Source: Escherichia coli (GTDB taxonomy: Bacteria > Pseudomonadota > Gammaproteobacteria > Enterobacterales > Enterobacteriaceae). From it: a stretch of DNA of 64,000 bases. The stretch lies in NCBI RefSeq assembly GCF_041886205.1, contig NZ_CP169029.1. One strand, written 5' to 3'. Shown here piece after piece: positions 36,203 to 56,204 of the stretch (within the stretch, counting starts at the first letter, position 1; each line of letters starts with the position of its first letter). The notes under the pieces were generated by a model. It ran no database searches, was not told where the DNA came from, and saw only the letters and a program-made list of their open reading frames with translations. Made by a program: the position numbers and the translations under genes.

Positions 36203-39200
36203 TTAATGGAAAATGACGTCGGGTGCGCTTAACGCCTCACTCAAATCAAACACATCAAGTGCGGCAAAAGTGACGGATTTATTGTCACGGTACACCCGAA
36301 GAGAACGGAAGCTCATCAGCGCTTTGCTATCAGCACTGTAGTAGTTAAAACCGGGTGAAAACTTAAGGACCAGCCGGTACTCACCTAAGTCATAGACAAA
36401 TGCGTCCTCATAGCCTGACTCCCAGCCTTTGTATCGCATTCCCATAAGCTGCCCAACGGTAGCGGATTTACCTTCCCAGCGAGTCAGGCTGTTACTGGTT
36501 GACTCGTCAGGTGTGAGCAGCACCGTGCGGCGCGACAACTGGCGAAAAGGCGGCATAATTTCGTAATCGGCAAAAAGCTGTGCAAATTCACTGCGCATTT
36601 CTGCTGTCATTTCTAACGGGTGGGCAATGCCAATCAGAGCGTCCGCAGGCAGGTCAATGGGCTCATCTTGTGCATTGCAGAATTCCCCCTCTGCGGCCAC
36701 ACGAAAGGTGTTGAGTAAACGACGTGGTTCATTTGCCGGATAAACCCCCCATATTAATCGCTGGGTAACCAGGCGGGTAAAGGGATGATTAACAAAAAGA
36801 GAATGAAAATCTGCCAGCGACCAGCGTCGGGTGGTGCGTAGGGCAGTTTCAAGACGCGGGAGCAGGTTTTTGCTCACCTGAGTGGCATCTTTTTTTAGCC
36901 CTTTTAGTCGGGCCAGTGCCTCGGGCGCTTTCAGTTGATCGTCATCGGCGCGCAACCGGGGAACACTTTTCTGGCGAACGTTTTGTTGATCGTAGATAAC
37001 CGGGTTGAGGTTTTCATCGAAGCGAACGGTAAACTGCCGGGGACCAAAATCAAAAATCAACGCCTGCGGATCATCAAGACCCAGTGTTGGGACTAATCTG
37101 TCCGCTAACTCTTCCTGGCTTAGCCCGCGATTTTCTGCGACCACCTGAAGAAATTCCGCTGCGTTTTCACGTAATGAAGAGGATTTCGCCCGTTGTGATA
37201 CATGATGCAGCTGTATCAGCGCCATATCATTATTCATCAGGGTGAGTATATTCAGACCACTGACAGCACGGGCAGATTTGCCTTCTTGTGGCCAAGCGAG
37301 GATCTGTGTTGTTAGATCCCGTGCCGTGCTTTCGTCACCAAAGAGACTTAACGCCAGAAATGCCCAGTTGTCTTTTGCGGGGGCACCAGCTTGTTGCCAT
37401 GCGGTGAAGAGATCCCAGGCAAAAGCTGCCAGCGTTTGCGGCTGGCAGAACGTTTTCAGTTGTTCCAGCCCGCTATAAAAACGTCCCCCTTGGGTAAAGC
37501 GCAGCATTTCGCCAATAATTTCCAGAGCGTCATCGGTAACAGGTTGATTATTAGTGATAAGGCGCGGCCTGGACCACATTTGCGGATGCCAGAAATCAGG
37601 GGCTTTTGGAATGCGTGCCGGGTAAATCTCTATTGGACTCTGTTTAAGTAATTGTTCCAGGGCAGGCCATACATCAGCGCGATCCCAGCGGTTTGCCACG
37701 GTTTGTAGTAATACGCCATGTCCCTGTTCGTAAAGTAAACGCAGGGCAAGTAATGCAGCTTCGCTATTATCGCTGGATTTAGTGAAGACAAGAGGGATAA
37801 GTGCAGTAGCCGTATGTTCCGGCCATTGTAAAATCCACTGGCGAGCCAGATCACGCTGCGCCGCGAAACGTCGCCAGACGCGGGCAACAGGCAGCGCCAG
37901 TTCTGTTGCGCCGAAATGAATCAGCAGCGGAAATATCTCTTGTGGATGTCGGGCAAAGGCGGTGTTTAATCCAGGCAAAGCATCGGTAGCCAGCACACTT
38001 AACAGATATTCCACCCCAGTGTAATGAAAATCAGCATCGACAATTTGTTGCCAGCACGATACCGCCATTTCGCGCGGCATCTGCGCGATAAGGTACAGAT
38101 TCCAAATCCCCCAACGCTTTTCATTACCATAGTAAAATTCGTGCTGAAAAGTTCGCCACCCTTCCATCAACGCAATGCAATCTTGTGCCAGTAATGCTTT
38201 GGTGGCTTCTTCACGATACTGTTTAGATTTGGCCTGATGCGCGTGATAAGTACGCAATAGTCCTATTGATGTGTATTCTTGCAGTTGCTGAGCATCAAAG
38301 GCATCCAACTGTCCATTAAGAAGATGCTTATTAAATTCCAGGCTATGAACGTCAAAACCTAATTCCCGCAAGAAGGTATCCGCCCCTCTCTTAGCAATAC
38401 GTTCGTCAAAAGACATGGCGCTAAAATGGTCAATTGCAGTTTGCTGTTCCGGCGTCCAGTGTTTATTCGGCGACCTGTACGTTTGCGGTGCAAGCGTAAG
38501 ATCAGGCAGCGAAAAGTGAGGTATGGAAGTCTTTTTCTTCCTCCCACGCCATGGTGGTGAAACGAGGATTTCAGGCATTTGGCTGTTATCGGTACTATCA
38601 ATAACCGGTTTGGGCGGTGCCAATAAATAACTATTCAGTACTGCCCGGGCTTGAGTACTTAACCACTGCATCACCTCTTCTGCCAGTTGTGGCTGCGATG
38701 CCATCAGCGTTTGTAACAGCGTACGCCAGTATTCATCTCGAGCTTTTTGCTGGGCAGGCAGCTTTTTGTCTTCGATGATTGGATAACCAGGGCGGGCTGG
38801 TGGTTCTTTTAACGCCAACAGTTCTGCCAGTGCCGCGAGCGTCGCGTGGGGGAAGTTTTTACTGTATTTAGCCACACGTTGCAGGCTGGGTTTGTTTTTA
38901 TCAGCCACCAGTAGCAAGGTGCGGATGACCTGCGGATGGTTAATTTGTACCAACAGACTGCCGCAATCTTCTTTATGGGCATACATCGCGAGGCGCGGAA
39001 TGGCTGCCAGTCCTTGTTCGCGCAAAAGGGCGGCGCAGGCCGCGTAGCCGAAGTGGTTTTCATGCGACATGTAGCTGGCTTCGCGATCGCTAAATATATC
39101 CTGACTCCAGTAGTGATCGAGTTTCCTCACCGCTGTGGGGTCATTAGCAACAACTTTTAGCCACTCCTTAGAATGATAATGAGTCCGTGGGCATTCAAGG

Positions 39201-39850
39201 CCTATCAACTCATTGGCGATTTCTGGTTTTTCCGGGAGGATCAGCGCAATAAAAGGGCGGCGAACTTTGGTTATTCCTGGCAGTGCGGCAATGAGTTTGT
39301 CGGCGCAACGCTGCCAGCAGCTTTCCTCTGCCAGAGAGAGATGCTTACGCAGTCGGAGATCGAATTCGTTATAGGTTTCTGATCGATAACCATAGCCATA
39401 GTCCTCGTTCTGATACTGCAATGTCACTACCAGAGGATCACTCTCATAACACCGCGCAATAAACTGGCGTGCAATCACCACCTCAGTCGCATATTCCAGT
39501 CCCTCTTGTTGGACGATTTCGTCGAGCAACTGTTGGCTGTCATTTTGCGCGATACAGGCTAGTGCCGCCATTGTGCGGGCCGGGACTGAGGGTTTGTGTT
39601 CGCCGATCAAGTTGATGGCCTGCGTAATGGCGGACTGCCACTCCAGTGAAAAATTTTCATAACGCCAGACAATGTTTTTTTTCTTCTCAGCTTTTTGTAG
39701 CAATTCATCACCCAGTGTCTGAATGATGCTTTCAGTGATAACAGGCACCGGTTCGCCCGGCCATTTGCGATGACTGAGTGGTGTTTTGCCTTTTTTATAT
39801 TTCAGTTCCAGTTGGGCGTTATCCGCCAGCCACGGTAATTCCTTGTCCAT
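36203..39850 (-). CDS. yehI: MolR/YehI-family giant protein YehI (1215 aa); lacks the N-terminal WGR-like module
   Basis: Uninterrupted 1215-aa ORF. It aligns to the upstream paralogue from about residue 97 (LPWLADNAQ vs LPWLADGAQ) through the C-terminus. The start is 9 nt after the upstream stop, and that spacer contains aggaaagag (SD). Confidence 0.88.
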   Translation of the reverse strand: MDKELPWLADNAQLELKYKKGKTPLSHRKWPGEPVPVITESIIQTLGDELLQKAEKKKNIVWRYENFSLEWQSAITQAINLIGEHKPSVPARTMAALACIAQNDSQQLLDEIVQQEGLEYATEVVIARQFIARCYESDPLVVTLQYQNEDYGYGYRSETYNEFDLRLRKHLSLAEESCWQRCADKLIAALPGITKVRRPFIALILPEKPEIANELIGLECPRTHYHSKEWLKVVANDPTAVRKLDHYWSQDIFSDREASYMSHENHFGYAACAALLREQGLAAIPRLAMYAHKEDCGSLLVQINHPQVIRTLLLVADKNKPSLQRVAKYSKNFPHATLAALAELLALKEPPARPGYPIIEDKKLPAQQKARDEYWRTLLQTLMASQPQLAEEVMQWLSTQARAVLNSYLLAPPKPVIDSTDNSQMPEILVSPPWRGRKKKTSIPHFSLPDLTLAPQTYRSPNKHWTPEQQTAIDHFSAMSFDERIAKRGADTFLRELGFDVHSLEFNKHLLNGQLDAFDAQQLQEYTSIGLLRTYHAHQAKSKQYREEATKALLAQDCIALMEGWRTFQHEFYYGNEKRWGIWNLYLIAQMPREMAVSCWQQIVDADFHYTGVEYLLSVLATDALPGLNTAFARHPQEIFPLLIHFGATELALPVARVWRRFAAQRDLARQWILQWPEHTATALIPLVFTKSSDNSEAALLALRLLYEQGHGVLLQTVANRWDRADVWPALEQLLKQSPIEIYPARIPKAPDFWHPQMWSRPRLITNNQPVTDDALEIIGEMLRFTQGGRFYSGLEQLKTFCQPQTLAAFAWDLFTAWQQAGAPAKDNWAFLALSLFGDESTARDLTTQILAWPQEGKSARAVSGLNILTLMNNDMALIQLHHVSQRAKSSSLRENAAEFLQVVAENRGLSQEELADRLVPTLGLDDPQALIFDFGPRQFTVRFDENLNPVIYDQQNVRQKSVPRLRADDDQLKAPEALARLKGLKKDATQVSKNLLPRLETALRTTRRWSLADFHSLFVNHPFTRLVTQRLIWGVYPANEPRRLLNTFRVAAEGEFCNAQDEPIDLPADALIGIAHPLEMTAEMRSEFAQLFADYEIMPPFRQLSRRTVLLTPDESTSNSLTRWEGKSATVGQLMGMRYKGWESGYEDAFVYDLGEYRLVLKFSPGFNYYSADSKALMSFRSLRVYRDNKSVTFAALDVFDLSEALSAPDVIFH

Positions 39851-39859
39851 GCTCTTTCC

Positions 39860-42800
39860 TTATTCAAACAGGGCTTCAATATCGTTAATTAGCTCGCTGG
39901 CGGTGATGGCATCGAGTACGGAGAACTGCGCTTCCTGTGTTGAATTACTCCCCCAGCCATAGCTTTCCGCTTTGCCTTCCCATAACCACAGCTTGCTTAA
40001 GAGCTGCTCAGCGCTAAGTTCGGCTGGTGACATACCCACCGCAAAACCTTCGTCGATTTCCATGATTAACGACCAGCGACCCAAAGGTTTGATCATCCAT
40101 CCGATCCAGCCTCCATCCTGTGGTTCGCCCTTTATCCAGCCTTTATTCGCCAGCCCCATGACCCGACCACTCGGGCATTTTCTGCCTGCCCAGCGGGTCA
40201 GTTCACTGGCATTGCGCTCGGCTTCTGTCAGGGCGTAGCTGTTACGGTCGAGCTGGCGGAACGGTGGTAGCAGTTCGTAGTCGGCAAAAAGCTGACCAAA
40301 GGCGGCAGCATCCGTTGGTGATATTTCCAGAACGTGAGGAGTGCCGATAGAGATATCGCCTTCCGGCAGGGTGAAAAGATCATCGTCAGCGGTGCTGTAG
40401 CTGTTATCTTCTGCTACGCGAAAGCAAGCCAGTAGCTGGTTTTCGGCGCTATAAACGCCCCAAATCAGACGGCGGGTTAAGTGACGAACCAGCGGATGCT
40501 CAACCAGGAAGAGCTGGAAGTTTTCCAGCGACCAGCGGCGGCGCAGGCACATGGCGGATTCCAGCCTTGCTACCTGCTGGGCGGCGACGGTACGCGCATC
40601 TTTTTTCAGCAGTTTGTAGCGGTTAACAGCATCGTTCGCCTGTGATTCATCATCGCTTTTGTTTGGTTTGGGCAGGTCTTTCAGACGGCTGCCGGAAGCG
40701 TCACGCACAAACGGTTTTAAGGTTTCATCAAAGCTGACGGTGAACTGGCGTGGGCCGAAATCCAGCAGCAACGAACCGTTATCATCCAGACCGAGATCTG
40801 GTGCTAACCGATCTTCAAGCTCCGCCACCGTGAGTTCGCGGCTCTCGGCAATATCGGCAATTTTCTCTTTTGCCCGCTCCTGTAAAGCTTTGAATTTCAG
40901 TTTCTGAGCAATGCCGTTAAGCTGCATCAGAGCAATATCACTACCGATAGCGGCGAGGATATCAAGCCCGACGGTGGCGCGTTTATGCTGGGATTCGCCA
41001 GGCCAGGCGCGGATTAATGGCGTCAGTTTGCGGGCGGTGTCATCGTTACCGAGAACGCCTAACGCAGTGAACGCCCAACTCTCTTTCGACGGCGCGCCAG
41101 CGGTCTGCCAGGCGGTAAACAGATCCCAGGCAAATTCAGCCAGTGAGTCGGCGGTACAGGCGTCTTTCACCTGTAATATTCCCGGATACAGAACCTCTTC
41201 CTGAGGGAAGCGGAGCATTTCACCGAGGTGGAGGAGGGCTCTATCTGGCAGTGATTGGGCGTTTGCTTTTAATACCGGGCGCGTCCAGAGCGATGGTTGA
41301 TAAAAGGCCGGAAGAGTGGGGATTTTTGTCGGGTGATTATCTAAGGGATCGAGCGCAAGCAGAGCGTTCACCGCATCGGTTACTTCCGGCTGGTTATAAC
41401 GTCGGGCGATTTCTTGCAGTAATGGCTGATGACCGTTTTCGGTAAGCATACGCAAGGCAGCGCGGGCGTTATCCTGTGCTTCACCGGCTTTGCCGAGCGC
41501 CGCAGGCAGCAGGCCGGTAAGGGCATGTTCCGGGTATTTCAACAGCCAGCTACGGGCGTTTTCGCGTAGCGTTTTGAGTTTGTTGAAGGCACGGGCAATC
41601 AGTGGCGCTAATTCGATAGCCGCAAAATATTGTGCTACAGGCAGCGCTTCTTGCGGATAGCGAGATGCTGAGTGGATAAAACCTGTTAAACCAGCAAGTC
41701 GAAGATGCAACATTACTTGTGTTGCACCTGTATGTGGTTCTTTACTAAGGATGTTCCACATCTCGATAGCTTTATTAATGGGTAAAACATGGAGTGAAGA
41801 AAGATTCCATTCGCCCTGATAAGGGGAGTTATAGGACTTAAAAGCATCAATCAGCGCTGAATAATCTTCACGCTGCAAGGCATCCAGTGCTATTTCTGGA
41901 ACATCAATATAGCCTCTATGTTTGTTCCAATCCCAGCGGTTGAATCCCAGGGAGGTCAGAAAAGCTTTTTCTCCCTCAGCTTGCTGATGAGGTTGCCAGT
42001 TATGCTGCACTTGCAGTGTTTTGCTTTTTGTTTCATTTATTGTACAGAAGGATTCTAGGGATAATGGTGCTAAATCCAGCACCGAAATCGTCGATTTTTT
42101 CTTTTTAGCCAGCCAGGGCGGTGAGACTAATACGGCAGGCAGCATATCAGCGTTCGCATAAACTGAAGGTTGTGTCAGTTGTTGCTGGCATGACTTAAGA
42201 ACGGTAACTGCCGGGGCAGATAGCCAGGAGATTACCCGTTCTGCTAATGTTGGTTGTGAGATAAGCATTGTCATTAGCATCATGCGCCAGCGCTTTTCAT
42301 CTTTTTTTGCCAGAAGTTCTGCTAATGCCGCCAGCGCTGCATGTGGAAAGCGAACGAAAGCCTTTGTCATGCGATCGTGGCAACGCTTTCCCTGCTCGCT
42401 TGCATGGATAAGTAGTGTAAGTGCCTGCGGGTGGTTGATATGCATCAACACTTCACCACATGTGTCACCAGCAGCGTAAGGAGCAAAACGGGCCAGCGCA
42501 GCGACACCTTGCTCCTTGAGTATCGTTGCGCACCAGATTTTACCTCCGTAATAATCATCAAATACCTGCCCAGGCTGTCCTGGATAGTATTTTCCCAGTT
42601 CTGCCAATACCTGCTCGTCAGCGGCCGTCAGTTTTAGCCATTCCAGCGCATATAACCCTTTTTGTCCGCAAAGATGTCTGGCAATCTCATGAGCTATTTC
42701 TGGTTTTTCCGGCAACAATAGTGCAACCAGCGGCTGGTGCCAGGTGGGCATGTTTCCGAGAGCGGCAATCAGTTTGTCGGCGCAGCGCTGCCATACATCG

Positions 42801-43618
42801 TCATTTGCAAGTGAGAGATGCTTACGCAGGCGCATTTCAACCGAAGCGAAGCGTAACAGATAGCCAGGCTGCCTGTTATCCGGGGTAACCGTAATGAGAT
42901 GGGCATCATAATCCCAGTCGAAGCGGATGAATTGCAATGCAATGACAACCTCAGTGGCATATTCCAGACCACCTTCCTGGACAATTTGATCCATTAACTC
43001 TTCATGATCGTTACGATTGAAGCCTTGTTCCAGCGCAACCAGTACCGCCAGTACCATCGGAGGTAGCGTGGTGCTAATTGGCGAGTCGATAAGGCCTACT
43101 GCTTGTGTAATTGCCTGCTGCCAGTCGAGTGAACAGGTACTGTAATCGAAGGTGAGCACCTTTTTAAAACGCCGGTGAGTATTCGCGGCAACGGTGCGTA
43201 GCAGGGTTAATTCATCCTCCTGCTGCACCGGATCGCCAGGCCAGCGTCGATGACTGAGTGTGGTTGGCGCAATCTCTGTCGGTAACATGATTTGGGCACC
43301 GTCTGCCAGCCAGGGGAGGAGGTCACCAGCAAATGCTGGTTTGTCTTGTGGCAAAGGGGTAATTTCAGGGCATTCAATAACCTGGCCGGGTGCAAATGTC
43401 GCTGTCATCACGGATACTTCTTCTACGTAGCCCTTTTTTGTTTTCTCCGCAATCAGCTTCAGCTCCGCTTTTTCCGCCGCCGCAGCATCTGCAAAGCTTT
43501 TTACCTGACTTTGCCCGTTACTGCCGACTTTACCCCAGTTAATATGCAGCTCGTTTCCCTGCTGCTCCACCGCCCAGAATTTATGTGATTTTTCGTCCTG
43601 ATAAATATAGGTTTTCAT
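39860..43618 (-). CDS. Intact MolR-family protein (1252 aa): N-terminal WGR-like domain plus a long helical/DUF4132-type body
   Basis: Uninterrupted ORF. The N-terminus MKTYIYQDEKSHKFWAVEQQGNELHINWGKVGSNGQSQVKSF fits the WGR-domain pattern (FW..., WG+xG..GQ). The C-terminal roughly 500 aa are about 75-80% identical to the neighbouring split paralogue. Confidence 0.85.
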   Translation of the reverse strand: MKTYIYQDEKSHKFWAVEQQGNELHINWGKVGSNGQSQVKSFADAAAAEKAELKLIAEKTKKGYVEEVSVMTATFAPGQVIECPEITPLPQDKPAFAGDLLPWLADGAQIMLPTEIAPTTLSHRRWPGDPVQQEDELTLLRTVAANTHRRFKKVLTFDYSTCSLDWQQAITQAVGLIDSPISTTLPPMVLAVLVALEQGFNRNDHEELMDQIVQEGGLEYATEVVIALQFIRFDWDYDAHLITVTPDNRQPGYLLRFASVEMRLRKHLSLANDDVWQRCADKLIAALGNMPTWHQPLVALLLPEKPEIAHEIARHLCGQKGLYALEWLKLTAADEQVLAELGKYYPGQPGQVFDDYYGGKIWCATILKEQGVAALARFAPYAAGDTCGEVLMHINHPQALTLLIHASEQGKRCHDRMTKAFVRFPHAALAALAELLAKKDEKRWRMMLMTMLISQPTLAERVISWLSAPAVTVLKSCQQQLTQPSVYANADMLPAVLVSPPWLAKKKKSTISVLDLAPLSLESFCTINETKSKTLQVQHNWQPHQQAEGEKAFLTSLGFNRWDWNKHRGYIDVPEIALDALQREDYSALIDAFKSYNSPYQGEWNLSSLHVLPINKAIEMWNILSKEPHTGATQVMLHLRLAGLTGFIHSASRYPQEALPVAQYFAAIELAPLIARAFNKLKTLRENARSWLLKYPEHALTGLLPAALGKAGEAQDNARAALRMLTENGHQPLLQEIARRYNQPEVTDAVNALLALDPLDNHPTKIPTLPAFYQPSLWTRPVLKANAQSLPDRALLHLGEMLRFPQEEVLYPGILQVKDACTADSLAEFAWDLFTAWQTAGAPSKESWAFTALGVLGNDDTARKLTPLIRAWPGESQHKRATVGLDILAAIGSDIALMQLNGIAQKLKFKALQERAKEKIADIAESRELTVAELEDRLAPDLGLDDNGSLLLDFGPRQFTVSFDETLKPFVRDASGSRLKDLPKPNKSDDESQANDAVNRYKLLKKDARTVAAQQVARLESAMCLRRRWSLENFQLFLVEHPLVRHLTRRLIWGVYSAENQLLACFRVAEDNSYSTADDDLFTLPEGDISIGTPHVLEISPTDAAAFGQLFADYELLPPFRQLDRNSYALTEAERNASELTRWAGRKCPSGRVMGLANKGWIKGEPQDGGWIGWMIKPLGRWSLIMEIDEGFAVGMSPAELSAEQLLSKLWLWEGKAESYGWGSNSTQEAQFSVLDAITASELINDIEALFE

Positions 43619-43630
43619 TGCTAAATCCTT

Positions 43631-45820
43631 TTAATCAAACAGTGATTCAATATCGTTAATCAGCTCGCTGGCGGTGATGTCGTCGAGCACGGAGAAGGGA
43701 TAAACCGATTTGCGCGGCGTCAGTTTGCACAACTGAATGTGCTCAATTTTTTGGCTATCGCTGATTTCGGTGACGGGCAATCCAACGCAGAAGCCTGGTG
43801 TCACACTCAGTTCGACGTAGCCATCATCCACAGATTTATAAAATGAGTAATAGCCGCCACCATCCAGCACATCGCCCCGTTGCCAGCCTTTATTCATCAG
43901 CCCGGCGACGCGCCCACTCGCTGCCTGGCGACCAGCCCAGCGCTGCAAATCGCTGCTGCTTTTTTCTGTCTCAGAGAGCTGAGACCAGGGGCGATCAAGT
44001 TGACTGAATGGTGGCAATAGTTCGTAGTCAGAGAACAGTTGTGCAAATTCAGCAGCCTGCGGGGCCGGGATTTCCAGTACATGCGGGATACCGATACTGC
44101 CCTGCGCAAGGGTTAACGGGTTATCCTGACCGTCGCTAAAACTGCCATCCTCCGCCACGCGGAAACAGGAAATAAGCTGATTATCAGCGTCATAAATGCC
44201 CCACATCAGACGTTGGGTGATATGACGAACCAGGGGATGCTCAACCAGAAACAGGCGGAACTGTTCTGCAGTCCAGCGGCGACGCTGACACATGGCGGCT
44301 TCCAGACGCGAAATCTGTTGTGCAGCTACCGTGCGGACATCTTTTTTCAACAACTTGTAGCGATTTACCGCTTCCTCAGCCAGCGTTTCATCATCGCTTT
44401 TGTTCGGTTTGGGCAGATCTTTCAGACGGTTGCCGGAAGCTTCGCGCACAAACGGTTTTAAGGATTCATCAAAGCTGACGGTGAACAGGCGTGGGCCGAA
44501 ATCCAGCAGTAGTGAGCCGTTATCATCCAGACCGAGATCGGGGGCTAACCGGTCTTCCATCTCTGCGACGGTGAGCTGGCGGCTTTCGGCAATCTGGGCG
44601 ATTTTAGTTCTAGCCTGATCCTGCAAGGCTTTAAATTTTAGCTTTTGCGCAATACCGTTAAGTTGCATCAGGGCGATATCGCTGCCGATAGCAGCAAGAA
44701 TATCCAGCCCGACAGTGGCGCGTTTATGCTGAGATTCCCCCGGCCATGCGCGGATGAGCGGGGTGAGTTTGCGGGCGGTGTCATCGTTACCCAGAATCCC
44801 CAGTGCGGTAAATGCCCAGTTATCTTTGGCTGACCCGCTTGCAATCTCCCAGCTCAAGAAGAGATCCCAGGCGAAATCGGCAAGAGACTGCGGGGTACAG
44901 GCCTCGATTACCTGTGTTATCCCCGGGTAAAGGGTGGCTTCGCGGGGAAAAGAGAGCATGGTGCACAGTTGCAGGATAGCTGAATCCGGAAGTGCCTTGC
45001 CGTTACTGCGCAGAAGCGGGCGGTGCCATACTTCAGGGGTACACCAGGCGGGGAGTTTAGCGATTTTCTGCGGAAAATTATCGAGGGGGTCGCTGTTAAG
45101 AACATCTAACAAACCCGTAAGCACTTCTGCCTGATTATAGCGGTGGGCAATTTCTTCCATTAACGGCTGATGCCCATGATGAGCCAGATAGCGAATTGCC
45201 GTAGCGGCGTCTTCACGCTCACTACCTGCTTTTCCCAGCACGGAAGGCAGCAGGCCCGTAATGGCATGTTCCGGATAGGTTAACAACCAACGTTCAGCAA
45301 CATCACGTACAGATTTAAGCTGACGAAAGGCGCGAGCCATTAAGGGGGCTACTTCGGTTGCGCCAAAACGTGCCGCTAAAGGAATGGCTTCCTGAGGTAC
45401 GACTAAGGCGCGACGCAGCAAGCCGGGCAATGTCGGAAGACCGTAATATTCCACTACTTCACATGCGTTAATCAGATGTAGGTGAGTCAGTGCGTTCCAT
45501 ATTTTCAGTGCTTTATTTTCTGATAACTGAAGCAATACCGACACATTGACAAGGATATGACTTGCCCACCGAGGTTTATCCCAGATCTTTAATAAAGCTT
45601 CGTAATTGTCCTGCTCGAAAAAATCAATGGCAGCCTGAGGTATACCCCAACCAAGCTCTTCGCAATGGAAGTTCAACAAATCCAGGATATCTTTCGCTGA
45701 TGGGGATGGCGCAGATGGCTCAGTCAGATTTTTTGTTGCGGGGATAGATTCAGGGGGGGAAGAGGTAATACCCGGAGAGTGAGGTTGATACCAGCAATCT
45801 TTTTCTTTTTTTCCAACCAT
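43631..45820 (-). pseudogene. C-terminal portion (729-codon ORF) of a third MolR-family gene, split by a frameshift
   Basis: Homologous to residues of about 530-1252 of the intact paralogue. Overlaps the N-terminal ORF by 97 nt in another frame. Adding one C to the C7 run at 45753-45759 fuses both ORFs into 1246 codons. Confidence 0.75.
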
Positions 45821-47370
45821 GAAGGGGCGATCAATATACTGGGTAATTCATTCTTATGAGCAATTTTTTCGATGGACATAAGCTGAGGAAAATAACTAAA
45901 TAAAATTTGTTGCTGTTTTTCGTCAAGCCAGGGAAGCGTTTTATGTAAGGCTTGCGCATTACCCAAGATGATGCGCTGCAGTAAACGATAATAGTGAGAG
46001 TTATTTGTGTAATTTAAGGCTTTTGTTAATGCATAAAGTGCAGCTTCAGGATGTAAATTTGTTGCGTGTTCCACTTCACTGATACATTCTTCTTTTATTA
46101 ATATATTAATGGCGTCAGGATGATTAACTTGTGTAATTAGATTTTTAACTGAATAACTATCCTTTATCCATGGCTGAAGAAGTGGAAGAGCTTTTACCCC
46201 TCGTTCACGCAGTAATGTCGCAGTGCATTTTTCCGCCGTCTGCCAGTCGTTATAGCGCTTAAGTTGGTTAAGATTCATCAATTCATTGAGTGCCTGCGGA
46301 TCTGTGGCAACGATATCCAACCATTCCATTTCTGGGTAATTAGCACATTGCACTAAGTCAAAGACAATTTGATTAGCAATTTCAGGTTGTTCAGGCAAAA
46401 GAAAACCTATTAAAGGGCGTTTACGTGGAGACAGGGAAGGCAACGCTTGAGTAAGCTTTTTCATGCACCGTTGCCATGTTTTTTCATCAATACGCGAGAG
46501 ATGATTTCGCAAGTGAAAATCTACAGTGCTGAAGCCGAATTCAAAACGTTGTTCTGATATTGTGTTACTTAGAATAAGCGTTGGTACGCAATTTTTTGTA
46601 AAAAAATTGTATCCCATGCGAACATACAAAAGGCATTTATCTAAAGCTTCACAATTTCCCGGATCTTGATTTTGATCATCTGATATCTGAATTTGCTGTA
46701 ATAGCAAGACTAATTCGGTCGCGTATTCTACCCCATGCTGTTGCGCCAGATAATCAAAAAGATCATTAGCGCTATCGCTATCTTGCATAAGAAACTTGAC
46801 CAGCAAAAAGAATGCATTGGAGAAAATCGAACCGTCTATATTTTTCTGCTGAACGCGCATGATTGCTTCATCCCGGCCTCGTTGCCATTCCGGGCGGCAG
46901 TCACTCACATCAAAATGCTGTAATTGTGCAAGAAAATAGTATTCCTCATATTTGTTTTCCCATAAGAGTGACCATAACGAGATATCTTTAGCAAACGTCC
47001 TGACACTGTCGGCTGGGAATTTCCTACTGCTAAATACTCTCTTTGTTTCGAGAATGATTGGTTCAAGGTCCGCAATCCACGGTGGTGTGTCGACATCAGT
47101 AATAATTGGATGTTGTTCGCTATCATCAGCTGTGGTGGGAACAGTTATCAGCATGTTTATATCGTCAGTCGATTTTACATACCCCTTCTTCACCTTCTCC
47201 GCAATCAACTTCAGCTCCGCTTTTTCCGCCGTTGCAGCATCCGCAAAACTTTTTACCTGGCTTTGCCCTTGGGTGCCAACTTTTCCCCAACTGATATGCA
47301 ACTCGTTTCCCTGTTGCTCCACCGCCCAGAATTTATGTGATTTTTCGTCCTGATAGATAAAGCGTCTCAT
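45724..47370 (-). pseudogene. N-terminal portion (548-codon ORF) of the split MolR-family gene: WGR-like domain plus an AT-rich divergent region
   Basis: N-terminus MRRFIYQDEKSHKFWAVEQQGNELHISWGKVGTQGQSQVKSF. It ends just after PSWLEKKKKIAGINLTL, which is homologous to PPWLAKKKKSTISVLDL in the intact copy. Confidence 0.75.
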
Positions 47371-47470
47371 TCTGCATCCCTGTAATTTTATCCAGTTGAA
47401 TGCAGATGCTACCAGTATTTATGCGGGTTAGAGAGAGACAAAATCGCAAGAAAACAACTTTAGGAATTTA

Positions 47471-47501
47471 TAAAGAAAAGGCGCTGTCGATGCAGCGCCT
47501 T
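47471..47501 (-). terminator. metG intrinsic terminator
   Basis: On the minus strand: aaggcgctg-catcga-cagcgcctt followed by ttctttat. It lies 10 nt after the metG stop. Confidence 0.7.
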
Positions 47502-47510
47502 GAAGGGGGA

Positions 47511-49544
47511 TTATTTCACCTGATGACCCGGTTTAGCACCGGCATCCGGGCTTAGCAGGAAGATATCTTTCCCGCCAGGACCAGCAGCCATTACCATGCC
47601 TTCGGAGATACCAAAGCGCATTTTACGCGGCGCCAGGTTAGCCACCATAATGGTGTGACGACCAATCAGAGCCTGCGGATCCGGGTAAGCAGAACGAATG
47701 CCGGAGAAAACATTACGTTTTTCACCGCCGAGATCCAGTGTCAGTCGCAGCAGTTTGTCAGAACCTTCAACAAACTCTGCATTTTCAATCAGCGCCACGC
47801 GCAGGTCAACTTTAGCGAAGTCGTCAAAGGTGATGGTTTCCTGAATCGGATCGTCTGCCAGCGGGCCAGTAACTGTCGCGGCAGCTGCTTTCACTTCTTC
47901 TTTAGAGGCTTCCACCAGTGCTTCAACCTGCTTCATATCGATGCGGTTATACAGCGCCTTGAACGGATTCACTTTGTGGCCCAGCAGCGGTTGCTGGATA
48001 CCATCCCAGGTCAGTTCCGTATTGAGGAATGCTTCTGCACGCTCGGTCAGTTTCGGCAGTACCGGCTTCAGGTAAGTCATCAGCACGCGGAACAGGTTTA
48101 TGCCCATTGAGCAAATTGCCTGCAGGTCGGCATCGCGGCCTTCCTGTTTCGCCACAACCCACGGAGCCTGTTCATCGACATAGCGGTTAGCCAGATCAGC
48201 CAGCGCCATGATTTCGCGCACGGCTTTACCAAATTCGCGGCTTTCCCACGCTTCACCAATCACTTCAGCGGCATCAGTGAAGGTTTTGTACAACTGCGGG
48301 TCAGCCAGTTCGCTTGCCAGCACACCGTCAAAACGCTTGTTGATAAAGCCCGCATTACGAGAGGCCAGGTTAACCACTTTGTTAACGATATCGGCATTCA
48401 CGCGCTGAACGAAATCTTCCAGGTTGAGATCGATATCATCAATGCGCGAAGAGAGTTTCGCAGTGTAGTAGTAACGCAGGCTGTCAGCGTCAAAATGATT
48501 CAGCCAGGTGCTGGCTTTAATAAAGGTACCGCGAGACTTAGACATCTTCGCGCCGTTCACCGTCACATAGCCATGAACAAACAGGTTGGTCGGCTTGCGG
48601 AAGTTGCTGCCTTCCAGCATTGCTGGCCAGAACAGACTGTGGAAGTAAACAATATCTTTACCGATGAAGTGGTACAGCTCGGCGGTGGAGTCTTTCTTCC
48701 AGTATTCATCGAAGCTTACGCTGTCGCCGCGCTTGTCGCACAGATTCTTGAAAGAACCCATATAGCCAATCGGCGCATCTAGCCAGACGTAGAAATATTT
48801 ACCCGGCGCGTTCGGAATTTCAAAACCGAAGTACGGCGCGTCGCGGGAGATATCCCACTGTTGCAGGCCGGATTCAAACCACTCCTGCATTTTATTTGCC
48901 ACCTGCTCCTGCAACGCACCGCTGCGGGTCCATGCCTGCAACATTTCGCTGAAAGAGGGCAGATCAAAGAAGAAGTGTTCAGAATCACGCATTACCGGCG
49001 TAGCGCCAGAAACCACCGATTTCGGCTCGATCAATTCAGTCGGGCTGTAGGTCGCGCCGCAAACTTCGCAGTTATCGCCGTATTGATCCGGGGATTTACA
49101 TTTCGGGCAGGTGCCTTTCACAAAACGGTCCGGCAGGAACATGCCTTTTTCCGGATCGTACAGCTGAGAGATGGTGCGGTTTTTAATAAAACCGTTTTCT
49201 TTCAAGCGAGTATAGATAAGCTCAGACAACTGGCGGTTCTCTTCGCTGTGCGTCGAGTGATAGTTGTCATAGCTGATGTTAAAGCCTGCGAAATCAGTCT
49301 GATGCTCCTGACTCATTTCGCCAATCATCTGCTCCGGGGTGATACCAAGCTGCTGAGCTTTCAGCATGATTGGCGTACCGTGGGCATCGTCGGCGCAGAT
49401 GAAGTTGACCTCGTGGCCGCGCATTCGCTGGTAACGGACCCAGACATCAGCCTGGATGTGCTCCAGCATATGGCCGAGGTGGATTGAGCCGTTAGCGTAC
49501 GGCAGTGCGCACGTCACCAGAATTTTCTTCGCGACTTGAGTCAT
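47511..49544 (-). CDS. metG: Methionine--tRNA ligase
   Basis: Start [25 protein letters not shown] (677 aa). HIGH-type HLGH motif, KMSKS motif, and zinc knuckles CPKC...CEVC. Confidence 0.96.
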
Positions 49545-49675
49545 AGTAGGCATTACTTCTTAATAGTGAAAAGGGGTTAGATAGTACCAAATGGGAAAAT
49601 GTTAAGTAAGTACTTCTCTATATTCTTCAGGTAAACTATCAGCTGATGGTTTATCTATACAAAAAAGGAGTCGGG

Positions 49676-51329: not shown

Positions 51330-51360
51330 TTTGGCAACCTGATTTTAATTGCATTTAGAA

Positions 51361-51399
51361 AGCCGAAATCATTTATATAAATGATTTCGGCTTTTTTTA
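51361..51399 (+). terminator. Intrinsic terminator after yehE
   Basis: agccgaaatcattt-atat-aaatgatttcggct is a 14-bp stem followed by ttttttt. Confidence 0.8.
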
Positions 51400-52921: not shown

Positions 52922-54956
52922 TTGCAGGAGCTGCCTATGTTGAGAATGACCCCACTTGCATCAGCAATCGTAGCGTTATTGCTCGGCATTGAAGCTTATG
53001 CAGCTGAAGAAACCTTTGATACCCATTTTATGATAGGTGGAATGAAAGACCAGCAGGTTGCAAATATTCGTCTTGATGATAATCAACCCTTACCTGGGCA
53101 GTATGACATCGATATTTATGTCAATAAGCAATGGCGCGGGAAATATGAGATTATTGTTAAAGACAACCCGCAAGAAACATGTTTATCAAGAGAGGTTATC
53201 AAGCGGTTAGGCATTAATAGCGATAACTTCGCCAGCGGTAAGCAATGTTTAACATTTGAGCAACTTGTTCAGGGTGGGAGCTATACCTGGGATATCGGGG
53301 TTTTTCGTCTCGATTTCAGTGTCCCGCAGGCCTGGGTGGAAGAACTGGAAAGTGGCTATGTTCCACCGGAAAACTGGGAGCGGGGTATTAATGCGTTTTA
53401 TACCTCTTATTATCTGAGTCAGTATTACAGTGACTATAAAGCGTCGGGTAATAGTAAGAGTACATATGTACGTTTTAACAGCGGGTTAAATTTACTGGGG
53501 TGGCAACTGCATTCTGATGCCAGTTTCAGTAAAACAAATAACAATCCAGGGGTGTGGAAAAGTAATACCCTGTATCTGGAACGTGGATTTGCCCAACTTC
53601 TCGGCACGCTTCGCGTGGGTGATATGTACACATCAAGCGATATTTTTGATTCTGTTCGCTTCAGCGGTGTGCGGTTGTTTCGTGATATGCAGATGTTGCC
53701 TAACTCGAAACAAAATTTTACGCCACGGGTGCAGGGGATTGCTCAGAGTAACGCGCTGGTAACTATTGAACAGAACGGTTTTGTCGTTTATCAGAAAGAG
53801 GTTCCTCCTGGCCCGTTCGCGATTACAGATTTGCAGTTGGCCGGTGGTGGAGCAGATCTTGATGTCAGCGTGAAAGAGGCGGACGGCTCGGTAACCACCT
53901 ATCTGGTGCCTTATGCAGCGGTGCCAAATATGCTGCAACCCGGCGTGTCGAAATATGATTTTGCGGCGGGTCGTAGCCATATTGAAGGGGCGAGCAAACA
54001 AAGTGATTTTGTCCAGGCGGGTTATCAGTATGGTTTTAATAATTTATTGACGCTGTATGGTGGCTCGATGGTCGCGAATAATTATTACGCGTTTACTTTG
54101 GGGACTGGCTGGAATACACGCATTGGTGCCATTTCCGTCGATGCCACGAAGTCGCATAGTAAACAAGACAACGACGATGTGTTTGACGGGCAAAGTTATC
54201 AAATTGCCTACAACAAATTTGTGAGCCAAACGTCGACGCGTTTTGGTCTGGCGGCCTGGCGTTATTCATCGCGTGATTACCGGACATTTAATGATCACGT
54301 TTGGGCAAACAATAAAGATAATTATCGCCGTGATGAAAACGATGTCTATGACATTGCCGATTATTACCAGAACGATTTTGGCCGTAAAAATAGCTTCTCT
54401 GCCAATATGAGCCAGTCATTGCCAGAAGGCTGGGGGTCTGTGTCCTTAAGTACGTTATGGCGAGATTACTGGGGGCGTAGCGGCAGCAGTAAGGATTATC
54501 AGTTGAGTTATTCCAATAACTGGCGGCGGATAAGCTATATCCTCGCGGCAAGCCAGGCGTATGACGAGAATCATCATGAAGAGAAACGTTTTAATATTTT
54601 TATATCGATTCCCTTTGATTGGGGTGATGACGTTACGACGCCTCGTCGGCAAATATATATGTCTAACTCAACGACGTTTGATGATCAGGGGTTTGCCTCA
54701 AATAATACGGGATTATCAGGAACCGTTGGAAGCCGGGATCAGTTTAACTATGGGGTCAACCTGAGTTATCAGAATCAGGGAAATGAAACGACAGCTGGGG
54801 CGAATTTGACCTGGAACGCGCCGGTTGCGACAGTGAATGGCAGTTATAGTCAGTCGAGTACTTATCGACAGGCTGGAGCCAGTGTTTCAGGGGGCATTGT
54901 CGCCTGGTCGGGGGGCGTTAATCTGGCGAACCGTCTTTCCGGGTAATGACTCCAAC

Positions 54957-55460
54957 TTATTGATAGTGTTTTATGTTCAGATAATGCCCGATAACTTTGT
55001 CATGCAGCTCCACCGATTTTGAGAACGACAGTGACTTCCTGCCCAGCCTTGCCAGATGCTGCCTCAGATTCAGGTTATGCCGCTCAATGCGCTGCGTATA
55101 TCGCTTGCTGATAACGTGCAGTTCTCCCTTCAGGCGTGATTCATAAAGCGGCCAGCCATCCGTCATCCATACCACGACCTCAAAGGCCGACAGCAGGCCC
55201 AGAAGACGCTCCAGCGTCGCCATAGTGCGTTCACCGAATACGTGCGCAACAACCGTCTTCCGGAGCCTGTCATACGCGTAAAACAGCCAGCGCTGGCGCG
55301 ATTTAGCCCCGACATAGCCCCACTGTTCGTCCATTTCCGCGCAGACGATGACGTCACTGCCCGGCTGTATGCGCGAGGTTACCGACTGCGGCCTGAGTTT
55401 TTTAAGTGACGTAAAATCGTGTTGAGGCCAACGCCCATAATGCGGGCAGTTGCCCGGCAT
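54957..55460 (-). CDS. insB: IS1 InsB' frame (fused to InsA by -1 frameshifting to give the InsAB' transposase)
   Basis: 167-aa ORF overlapping the insA 3' end in the -1 frame. Confidence 0.93.
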
Positions 55461-55654
55461 CCAACGCCATTCATGGCCATATCAATGATTTTCTGGTGCG
55501 TACCGGGTTGAGAAGCGGTGTAAGTGAACTGCAGTTGCCATGTTTTACGGCAGTGAGAGCAGAGATAGCGCTGATGTCCGGCGGTGCTTTTGCCGTTACG
55601 TACCACCCCGTCAGTAGCTGAACAGGAGGGACAGCTGATAGAAACAGAAGCCAC
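55379..55654 (-). CDS. insA: IS1 InsA (transposition inhibitor / N-terminal part of the transposase)
   Basis: 91-aa [42 protein letters not shown] (zinc finger plus HTH). Confidence 0.95.
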
Positions 55655-56204
55655 TGGAGCACCTCAAAAACACCATCATACACTAAATCAGTAAGTTGGC
55701 AGCATCACCGTCTTTCCGAAACGTTTGCTGTGATGAATGCGCCAGGAATTAAAGATGCTTATGTCAATGGGCAAAAATATCGCACAACAAACCTTAATGG
55801 AGTGGTGGTATACGACGGAATGACACCTTATCGGGAAAATCACCTGATGCTGGATGTGTCGCAAAGCGATAGCGAAGCAGAATTACGTGGCAACCGGAAA
55901 ATTGCCGCCCCTTATCGCGGCGCGGTTGTACTGGTTAATTTTGATACCGATCAGCGCAAGCCATGGTTTATAAAAGCGTTAAGAGCAGATGGGCAACCAT
56001 TAACGTTTGGTTATGAAGTCAATGATATCCATGGTCATAATATTGGCGTTGTCGGCCAGGGAAGTCAGTTATTTATTCGCACCAATGAAGTACCGCCAGC
56101 GGTTAATGTAGCAATTGATAAGCAACAAGGACTTTCATGCACAATCACCTTCGGTAATGAGATTGATGAAAGTAGAAATTATATCTGTCGGTGAGAGGTG
56201 GAAT

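Follow-up and report, generated by a model that had tools for sequence, protein, structure and literature searches.

Positions 1 to 64,000 of the stretch of Escherichia coli DNA analysed here (contig NZ_CP169029.1; hereafter the window) include the metG–molR/yehI locus, in which three genes of the WGR/DUF4132 family follow metG in tandem on the minus strand. The gene types of this locus were given the labels A to E in the present analysis; the first gene of the array, which is split by a frameshift, is of type C, and the two further copies represent types B and A, the order after metG being C, B, A. Copy C is a mosaic of a WGR-coding start, a long AT-rich centre and a 3' half of ordinary composition encoding DUF4132. 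Most probably, this mosaic is a rare and old paralog whose ends were exchanged with its tandem neighbours by homologous recombination, the frameshift being a separate event. A preceding sequence-only reading had proposed a cassette-type replacement of the centre by foreign or rapidly evolving DNA, with the junction at the frame break. Of that proposal, a recombinational mosaic with a type-specific central module is retained and the direction of exchange is reversed: the conserved ends were exchanged, not the centre.

The 5' end of copy C carries the junction of an E::C hybrid. Its first 130 nucleotides (nt) match the type-E genes of strains PT62, 6EVA and GF4-3 at 100% identity, against no more than 88.3% for the type-C genes located in the E-C arrays of these strains; all informative sites agree. 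From nt 131 onward, the identity to the C genes of these E-C arrays is 100%. The last E-diagnostic site is located at gene nt 129 and the first C-diagnostic site at nt 138. In a MaxChi comparison of C with E the signal peaked at nt 156, where identity drops from 0.974 to 0.509 (p ≤ 0.002). The nearest strain to the window is wlxctx60, with 99.97% identity over 23.3 kilobases (kb) and differences amounting to six substitutions and one single-base gap. Strain 6EVA, whose MetG, YehK and A proteins are the same as those of wlxctx60, has retained an undeleted E-C-B-A array. A crossover in the WGR module (gene nt 130-138) would have removed the promoter-proximal E gene from such an E-C-B-A array, and would have left E nt 1-130 fused to the C body behind an unchanged molR promoter. 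We infer a deletion of E rather than an insertion, as the more parsimonious event. The molR pseudogene of K-12 (contig L002, 8427-12222) is E-like (position-1) over its first ~146 nt and B-like beyond them, which suggests an origin by a similar recombination between two WGR modules.

Several descriptive statements of the sequence-only reading on base composition were reproduced. Over its initial 180 nt (47191-47370), the split copy resembles the start of the intact copy B with 85.6% identity (blastn: 85.4% over 198 nt), and three hand counts of guanine-plus-cytosine (GC) content in 60-nt samples were exact (33.3%, 36.7% and 51.7%). The stretch 45830-47150 is indeed AT-rich, with 39.4% GC against 51.1% for the window, which places it in the 2nd percentile among all 1321-nt windows, and the centre is a distant relative of the other copies (16-46% amino acid (aa) identity to B and A). 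Composition is not uniform across the family: the equivalent part has 49% GC in B and 50% in A, and the AT-rich shift is therefore specific to copy C. The return to normal GC had been located at about 45.8 kb. The maximum-likelihood change point falls instead at 45436 (support 45416-45496), with 54.7% GC on its 3' side and 41.1% on its 5' side; what resembles a recovery at 45.7-45.8 kb is confined to a Pro/Ser-rich linker, and GC content then drops to 41-44% again as far as ~45.45 kb. The AT-rich block 47172-45437 has 40% GC and 37% GC at third codon positions (GC3) in a genome of 51% GC. Nor is the C-terminal body uniformly highly conserved, as had been stated; its aa identity to B varies widely, from 25-46% down to ~45.4 kb and 46-62% to 44.85 kb to 80-92% only at 44.85-44.4 kb, then 24% around 43.8 kb and 84% over the final 19 codons.

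Among the five types, C has the lowest GC content, as has its cryptic Escherichia ortholog. Over gene nt 199-1900, GC content is 0.406 in type C (GC3 0.37), 0.445 in D, 0.465 in E, 0.490 in B and 0.497 in A, and the 3' halves of all types range between 0.51 and 0.54. Local GC content correlates with the identity to other types, with Spearman coefficients of 0.67-0.70 for C, 0.61-0.65 for D, 0.40-0.45 for E and 0.25-0.32 for B. This correlation fits equally well a recombination that keeps common segments at normal GC and a core of anciently different source. The cryptic ortholog of C comes from Escherichia sp. MOD1-EC7003; it is 75% identical at the aa level and contains an internal stop, and its GC content is 0.40 in the centre (GC3 0.35) and 0.51 in the remainder. 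Being equally AT-rich, it dates the low GC content as old within Escherichia. Its cause is not settled; a lack of recombination-associated GC bias, relaxed constraint, or both may have contributed.

The 3' half of copy C is a patchwork. In comparison with type D of strain MB53, identity is 68% over nt 1911-2330 and 93.5% over nt 2331-2780, and reaches 100% over the rest of the gene, starting at nt 2781 (~960 nt, from aa ~927). MaxChi placed the 3' breakpoints of C at nt 2298 against D and at nt 1975 against B, all MaxChi p-values being ≤ 0.002. Paralogs D and B have probably contributed patches to this half through gene conversion, and it has remained at genomic GC content. At both gene termini, short modules are conserved across types. 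The first ~195 nt, encoding the WGR domain, are 82-93% identical among all WGR-bearing types, and WGR modules of different types reach 82-96% identity within E. coli; two different types in the metagenome contig L006 share 94% identity in this module, and across genera the values are 68-77%. The last 66 nt are 83-100% identical among types B-E within E. coli and 74-85% across genera, and those of two different types within L006 are 100% identical. For WGR modules as for the 66-nt tails, grouping follows species and array position instead of paralog type, an indication of concerted evolution. By these alignments, homogenisation within genomes affects the ends, and the centres retain old paralog identities. 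The 66-nt tail, a spacer of 9-12 nt and the ~195-nt WGR module of the following gene form a conserved junction unit common to all WGR-bearing copies, a likely substrate for homologous recombination between copies. The control pair B and E, which does not involve C, likewise diverges in the 5' half and is better conserved in the 3' half, and part of the mosaic is therefore plain family architecture.

Array architectures were determined from the annotated loci of nine genomes, and types were counted in 5,426 finished E. coli genomes, the centres of types other than C at a query coverage of at least 80%. Between two and five copies lie between metG and yehK in the nine annotated genomes. K-12 has the B-like molR pseudogene and yehI; wlxctx60 and 2017.06.05CC have C, B, A as in the window; 6EVA has E, C, B, A; GF4-3 has E, C, D, B, A; MB53 has a C gene truncated by insertion sequences (IS), followed by D, B, A; and PT62 and LP5-1 have E and C followed by an IS1-mediated deletion. 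The type-C centre was detected in eight of the 5,426 genomes at 95.5-100% identity and in part (64%) in two more; the remaining 5,416 gave no match at the nucleotide level. The flanks of the centre match in 5,419 genomes. The type-E centre occurs in 1,636 genomes, that of type B is complete in 401 and partial in 3,770, and that of type D was found in three genomes and partially in two; types C and D are each present in less than 0.2% of finished genomes. Outside E. coli, L006, an enterobacterial metagenome contig of 57% GC, has metG followed by a small gene and, in this order, by E-like, C/D-like and B-like genes, and the array of Klebsiella sp. MISC125 consists of E-like, B-like, C/D-like and B-like genes. 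The type-wise best matches and the partly common order in these two arrays imply that the types predate the genera. Insertion sequences have affected several arrays (L005 11105-13561; L011 7580-8277; L010 21068-21765): in MB53, type C is truncated by IS1 and ISVsa5, and in PT62 an IS1-linked deletion has removed B, A and yehK. In sequence type 131, a blaCTX-M-15 transposon has been reported in the 'DUF4132 region', which is mentioned solely as an insertion site (PMC9334617).

Among the eight carriers, the centre is 99.7-100% identical in seven and 95-96% identical in GF4-3 (95.5% over 45830-47150). Differences between C alleles concentrate in the WGR module and the 3' half, and the centre is the quietest part: synonymous divergence (dS) is 0.48 in the WGR module, 0.23 in the 3' half and 0.097 in the centre. 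The ratio of nonsynonymous to synonymous divergence (dN/dS) is 0.28 in the centre and 0.12 in the 3' half. The centre is under purifying selection and is the oldest and most stable part of gene C. In the preferred reading, it forms a type-specific, non-recombining core (47172-45437) that encodes a HEAT-like solenoid, a fold that tolerates divergence, which would explain why paralog types differ so strongly in this region.

The strongest competitor, still an unlikely one, is that the central 1.3-1.7 kb of a molR-like gene was replaced by horizontally acquired low-GC DNA by way of the conserved flanks. Such an import would account for a centre unlike the host in composition (40% GC and GC3 37% in a 51% GC genome) and present in just eight of 5,426 genomes between flanks common to other copies, and it agrees with the correlation between GC content and the extent of segment sharing. 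A foreign source was, however, not recovered in the protein and genome-contig searches with the centre. In an exhaustive HMMER search of 1.84 billion representative proteins, the 473-aa centre gave 77 matches and no donor; beyond its own cluster, the best match reached 43% identity (the L006 gene) and all others ≤33%. That cluster comprises 123 members, and all 28 that carried an organism name among the 40 examined were from E. coli. A scan of genome contigs for exact back-translated patterns of the C centre gave no match, and a scan with an alignment of C, D and protein P0093 gave two loci only, namely the cryptic-Escherichia ortholog and a Klebsiella array member. When proteins were searched by indexed words, the centre matched P0001 alone; for copy B, the best 120 listed matches were all close Escherichia B-type proteins. 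Moreover, the C/D lineage has its place in related arrays of other genera, the AT-rich state recurs in the cryptic-Escherichia ortholog, and every other type also has a divergent centre of lower GC content. Mobility genes are absent between metG and yehK, where DUF4132 genes alone occur, and the borders of the AT-rich block fall within one continuous reading frame, in which no insertion scars were seen. Neighbouring paralogs are thus the favoured source of the exchanged segments, rather than foreign DNA.

Slightly less probable again is a central solenoid that acts as a rapidly diversifying specificity module under positive or diversifying selection, for instance in a conflict system, with AT-richness as a by-product. 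Several very different types do coexist at one locus, next to genes for MoxR, VWA and SWIM proteins, and between E. coli and the cryptic Escherichia the centre has evolved ~2.7 times faster than the 3' half (68% versus 88% nt identity, i.e. 32% versus 12% divergence), with the higher dN/dS of the two (0.28 versus 0.12). Yet this dN/dS is well under 1, type-C alleles are 95-100% identical in the centre, and the cryptic-Escherichia copy is a pseudogene, which inflates the divergence. The array proteins and YehLMPQ are without any match to PADLOC models, and distant members of the family are single genes without MoxR/VWA partners.

Exchange of the ends between tandem paralogs remains the preferred explanation of the mosaic, and some observations weigh against it or fit it less well. 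The same 5' junction would also result if E had been inserted into a C-first array, or if the first 130 nt alone had been converted. Purifying selection, and not conversion alone, must account for some of the conservation in the WGR module and the tail. The order in MISC125 differs from that in E. coli, with a B-like copy between the E-like and the C/D-like genes. Polarised substitutions in the centre (13 GC to AT and 22 AT to GC) reveal no ongoing drift towards AT, with an outgroup, the cryptic Escherichia, that is only 68% identical; and the centre may have been imported anciently into an ancestor of Escherichia. Finally, the type frequencies depend on the megablast coverage thresholds and on a biased genome collection.

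The frame break of copy C was traced, by comparison with wlxctx60, to a single-base deletion at 45751 (TTCCAGG to TTCAGG on the plus strand, beside a 7-base homopolymer). On the gene strand, CTGGAATC has become CTGAATC, adjoining a run of seven C. It is the sole insertion or deletion relative to wlxctx60 across 23.3 kb. The position claimed for the frame break, exactly at the junction between the conserved body and the AT-rich stretch, could not be upheld: the deletion lies 315 nt inside the AT-rich block, and the coincidence is not real. The type-C gene runs uninterrupted over 3741 nt in each of the eight complete carrier genomes, and the deletion is therefore peculiar to the window. For the same reason, programmed ribosomal frameshifting was rejected. 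Position 45751 sits in a predicted disordered linker. The frameshift represents a separate, recent and lineage-specific 1-nt deletion that inactivates C, or else a base-calling error. A derivation of the mosaic and/or the frameshift from mis-assembly of tandem repeats or from base-calling is very improbable, since the same mosaic gene occurs at 94-100% identity in eight independently finished genomes, two of them with the C-B-A architecture, even if tandem paralogs with identical tracts are difficult to assemble, the deletion borders a C7 homopolymer as the sole indel in 23 kb against the nearest genome, and many members of the database cluster are labelled 'partial'. The concordance of the eight finished genomes led us to reject assembly chimerism as the source of the mosaic; the mosaic is therefore real, and only the 1-nt deletion could be an error. 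In the genome of USMARC-49610 (contig L003, 12197-15937), RefSeq splits the type-C gene into three 'incomplete' pseudogene fragments. Its reading frame is open over 3741 nt and 98% identical to the intact gene, and this fragmented annotation is probably an artefact for a rare type.

Table 1 Features of the metG–molR/yehI array region, in window coordinates
Feature	Coordinates	Strand	Remark
metG	47511-49553	minus	array follows head-to-tail on the same strand
metG-array spacer, promoter region of the first array gene	47371-47510	minus	140 nt
split copy C	43631-47370	minus	two open reading frames, 45724-47370 and 43631-45820
gene nt 1-130, 5' part of WGR module, type-E-derived	47241-47370	minus	100% identity to E genes
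crossover interval of the E::C hybrid	47234-47241	minus	diagnostic sites nt 129 (E) and nt 138 (C)
rest of WGR module, type-C allele	47173-47233	minus	nt 131-198 100% identical to C orthologs
type-C AT-rich core: disordered linker, HEAT-like alpha-solenoid and Pro/Ser linker	45437-47172	minus	
1-nt deletion splitting copy C	45751-45751	minus	comparison with wlxctx60
normal-GC 3' half including DUF4132, patchwork common to D and B	43631-45436	minus	GC 53.7%
conserved 66-nt 3' tail	43631-43696	minus	common to all WGR-bearing paralogs
12-nt C/B spacer with ribosome-binding site	43619-43630	minus	junction alignment: conserved tail-spacer-ATG unit
copy B, intact, molR-like	39860-43618	minus	1252 aa, WGR and DUF4132
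copy A, yehI-like	36203-39850	minus	1215 aa, DUF4132, no WGR

The coordinates of the array and of the parts of copy C are compiled in Table 1. After repair of the frame, two Pfam domains were assigned to protein C, WGR (PF05406, aa 7-68, E = 1.8e-17) and DUF4132 (PF13569, aa 980-1163, E = 3.7e-48). Protein B contains both domains and protein A only DUF4132; C and B fit the WGR + DUF4132 (MolR/YehI) family. Of the six substitutions relative to wlxctx60 in the 23.3 kb compared, four lie in copy B (40544, 41721, 42954 and 43520), which may represent a small conversion tract or relaxed constraint. Beyond copy A follow yehK and then yehLMPQ, coding for an AAA_5/MoxR ATPase, a DUF5682 protein, a VWA_CoxE protein and a SWIM protein.

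In an AlphaFold2 model covering aa 1-541 (predicted local distance difference test score 86, predicted template modelling score 0.73), the WGR domain occupies aa 1-66 and a helical solenoid aa ~130-495; aa 70-90 are disordered, as is a linker that starts at aa ~515, in which the frameshift falls. Specific structural relatives were obtained for the WGR domain only, namely 2ra8 and the WGR domains of PARP1, PARP2 and PARP3. The spacer between metG and the array is 100% identical in the window (47371-47510), K-12 (L002 12223-12362) and GF4-3 (L004 16770-16909), and in these genomes precedes three different first genes: C, the B-like molR and E, respectively. In K-12, which is without the AT-rich centre, the molR promoter is reported to be activated by BglJ-RcsB and not to be repressed by H-NS/StpA (PMC3950696). 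It is the one datum that bears on the H-NS silencing suggested for the AT-rich stretch in the sequence-only reading, and the paper does not deal with that stretch.

In E. coli, DUF4132 genes adjoin genes for MoxR AAA+, VWA, DUF5682 and SWIM proteins. Such MoxR/VWA neighbours were absent beside the two distant homologues examined, from Chitinivorax and a betaproteobacterium, and these two cases lend no support to a conserved linkage. Both of these WGR-DUF4132 homologues (L013 7800-11576 and L014 10001-14461) are single genes; a tandem array linked to yehLMPQ was encountered only in Escherichia and Klebsiella-like loci among those examined. None of the proteins A, B, C, YehK, YehL, YehM, YehP and YehQ matched a model of PADLOC-DB 2.0, and a label as anti-phage defence was rejected for the array and the YehK/L/M/P/Q proteins on this account. 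In the literature searched, no functional study of DUF4132 was found, nor any account of molR/yehI as the remnant of a copy-variable array, and the paper on conflict systems by Kaur et al. (2020) makes no mention of WGR, MolR or YehL.

Speculatively, and with little confidence, the tail-spacer-WGR junctions might serve as recombination 'handles' with which HEAT-like recognition modules are deleted, reordered or hybridised behind one BglJ-RcsB-activated promoter. This would amount to a slow, population-level cassette switching, which could possibly supply alternative client or sensor proteins to a YehLMPQ MoxR-VWA-SWIM machine in biological conflict. If so, the type of solenoid at the promoter-proximal position would change by recombination. 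Our results give no direct clue to what DUF4132 proteins do.

Two further features of the window were recorded. The fimbrial usher gene yehB is interrupted by a copy of IS1 (54941-55707) with a 9-bp target duplication, CGTCTTTCC; the otherwise near-identical wlxctx60 lacks this IS1. A perfect 36-nt palindrome with a T-run (51359-51394) lies just after yehE, in a stretch of 23-25% GC upstream of yehD, and looks like the hairpin of an intrinsic terminator.

With boundary and frame-break coordinates corrected, the puzzling patchwork of copy C can be accounted for by an ordinary process, recombination between tandem paralogs. The E. coli locus known as 'molR pseudogene / yehI' is shown to be the remnant of a copy-number-variable array with at least five old paralog types. 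This has practical value for annotation, as genes of this locus are often called partial or pseudogenes, and for quality control of assemblies at the locus. It also offers a clean natural example for the study of local GC content in relation to recombination between gene copies.

The closest known counterpart is the K-12 pair of molR (the yehF/G/H pseudogene) and yehI, which shares with the window the locus, a 100% identical promoter region and the domain architecture. Copies B and A resemble molR and yehI, respectively, and K-12 molR has likewise decayed; in contrast to the window, K-12 has two copies only and no type C. PARP-type WGR proteins and the Bacteroides fragilis protein Q64V53 (PDB: 2ra8) differ from the proteins described here, in which WGR is followed by a HEAT-like solenoid and DUF4132 and a PARP catalytic domain is missing.

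In tandem multigene families, unequal crossing-over and gene conversion lead to concerted evolution. The array resembles such families in its head-to-tail paralogs, its copy-number polymorphism, its mappable hybrid crossovers and its modules with greater similarity inside one genome than across orthologs. Unlike them, homogenisation is here limited to short terminal modules and 3' patches; the 1.7-kb centres are type-specific, and the copies have not become uniform.

O-antigen and capsule clusters are organised as low-GC, variable and type-specific cores between conserved recombining flanks, with a patchy distribution across strains. By analogy, copy C would share with them the low-GC type-specific core, the conserved recombining flanks and the patchy strain distribution. 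Evidence of an import between species was not found for the array, and, unlike at those loci, its alternatives do not replace one another as alleles, but co-occur as tandem paralogs within one array.

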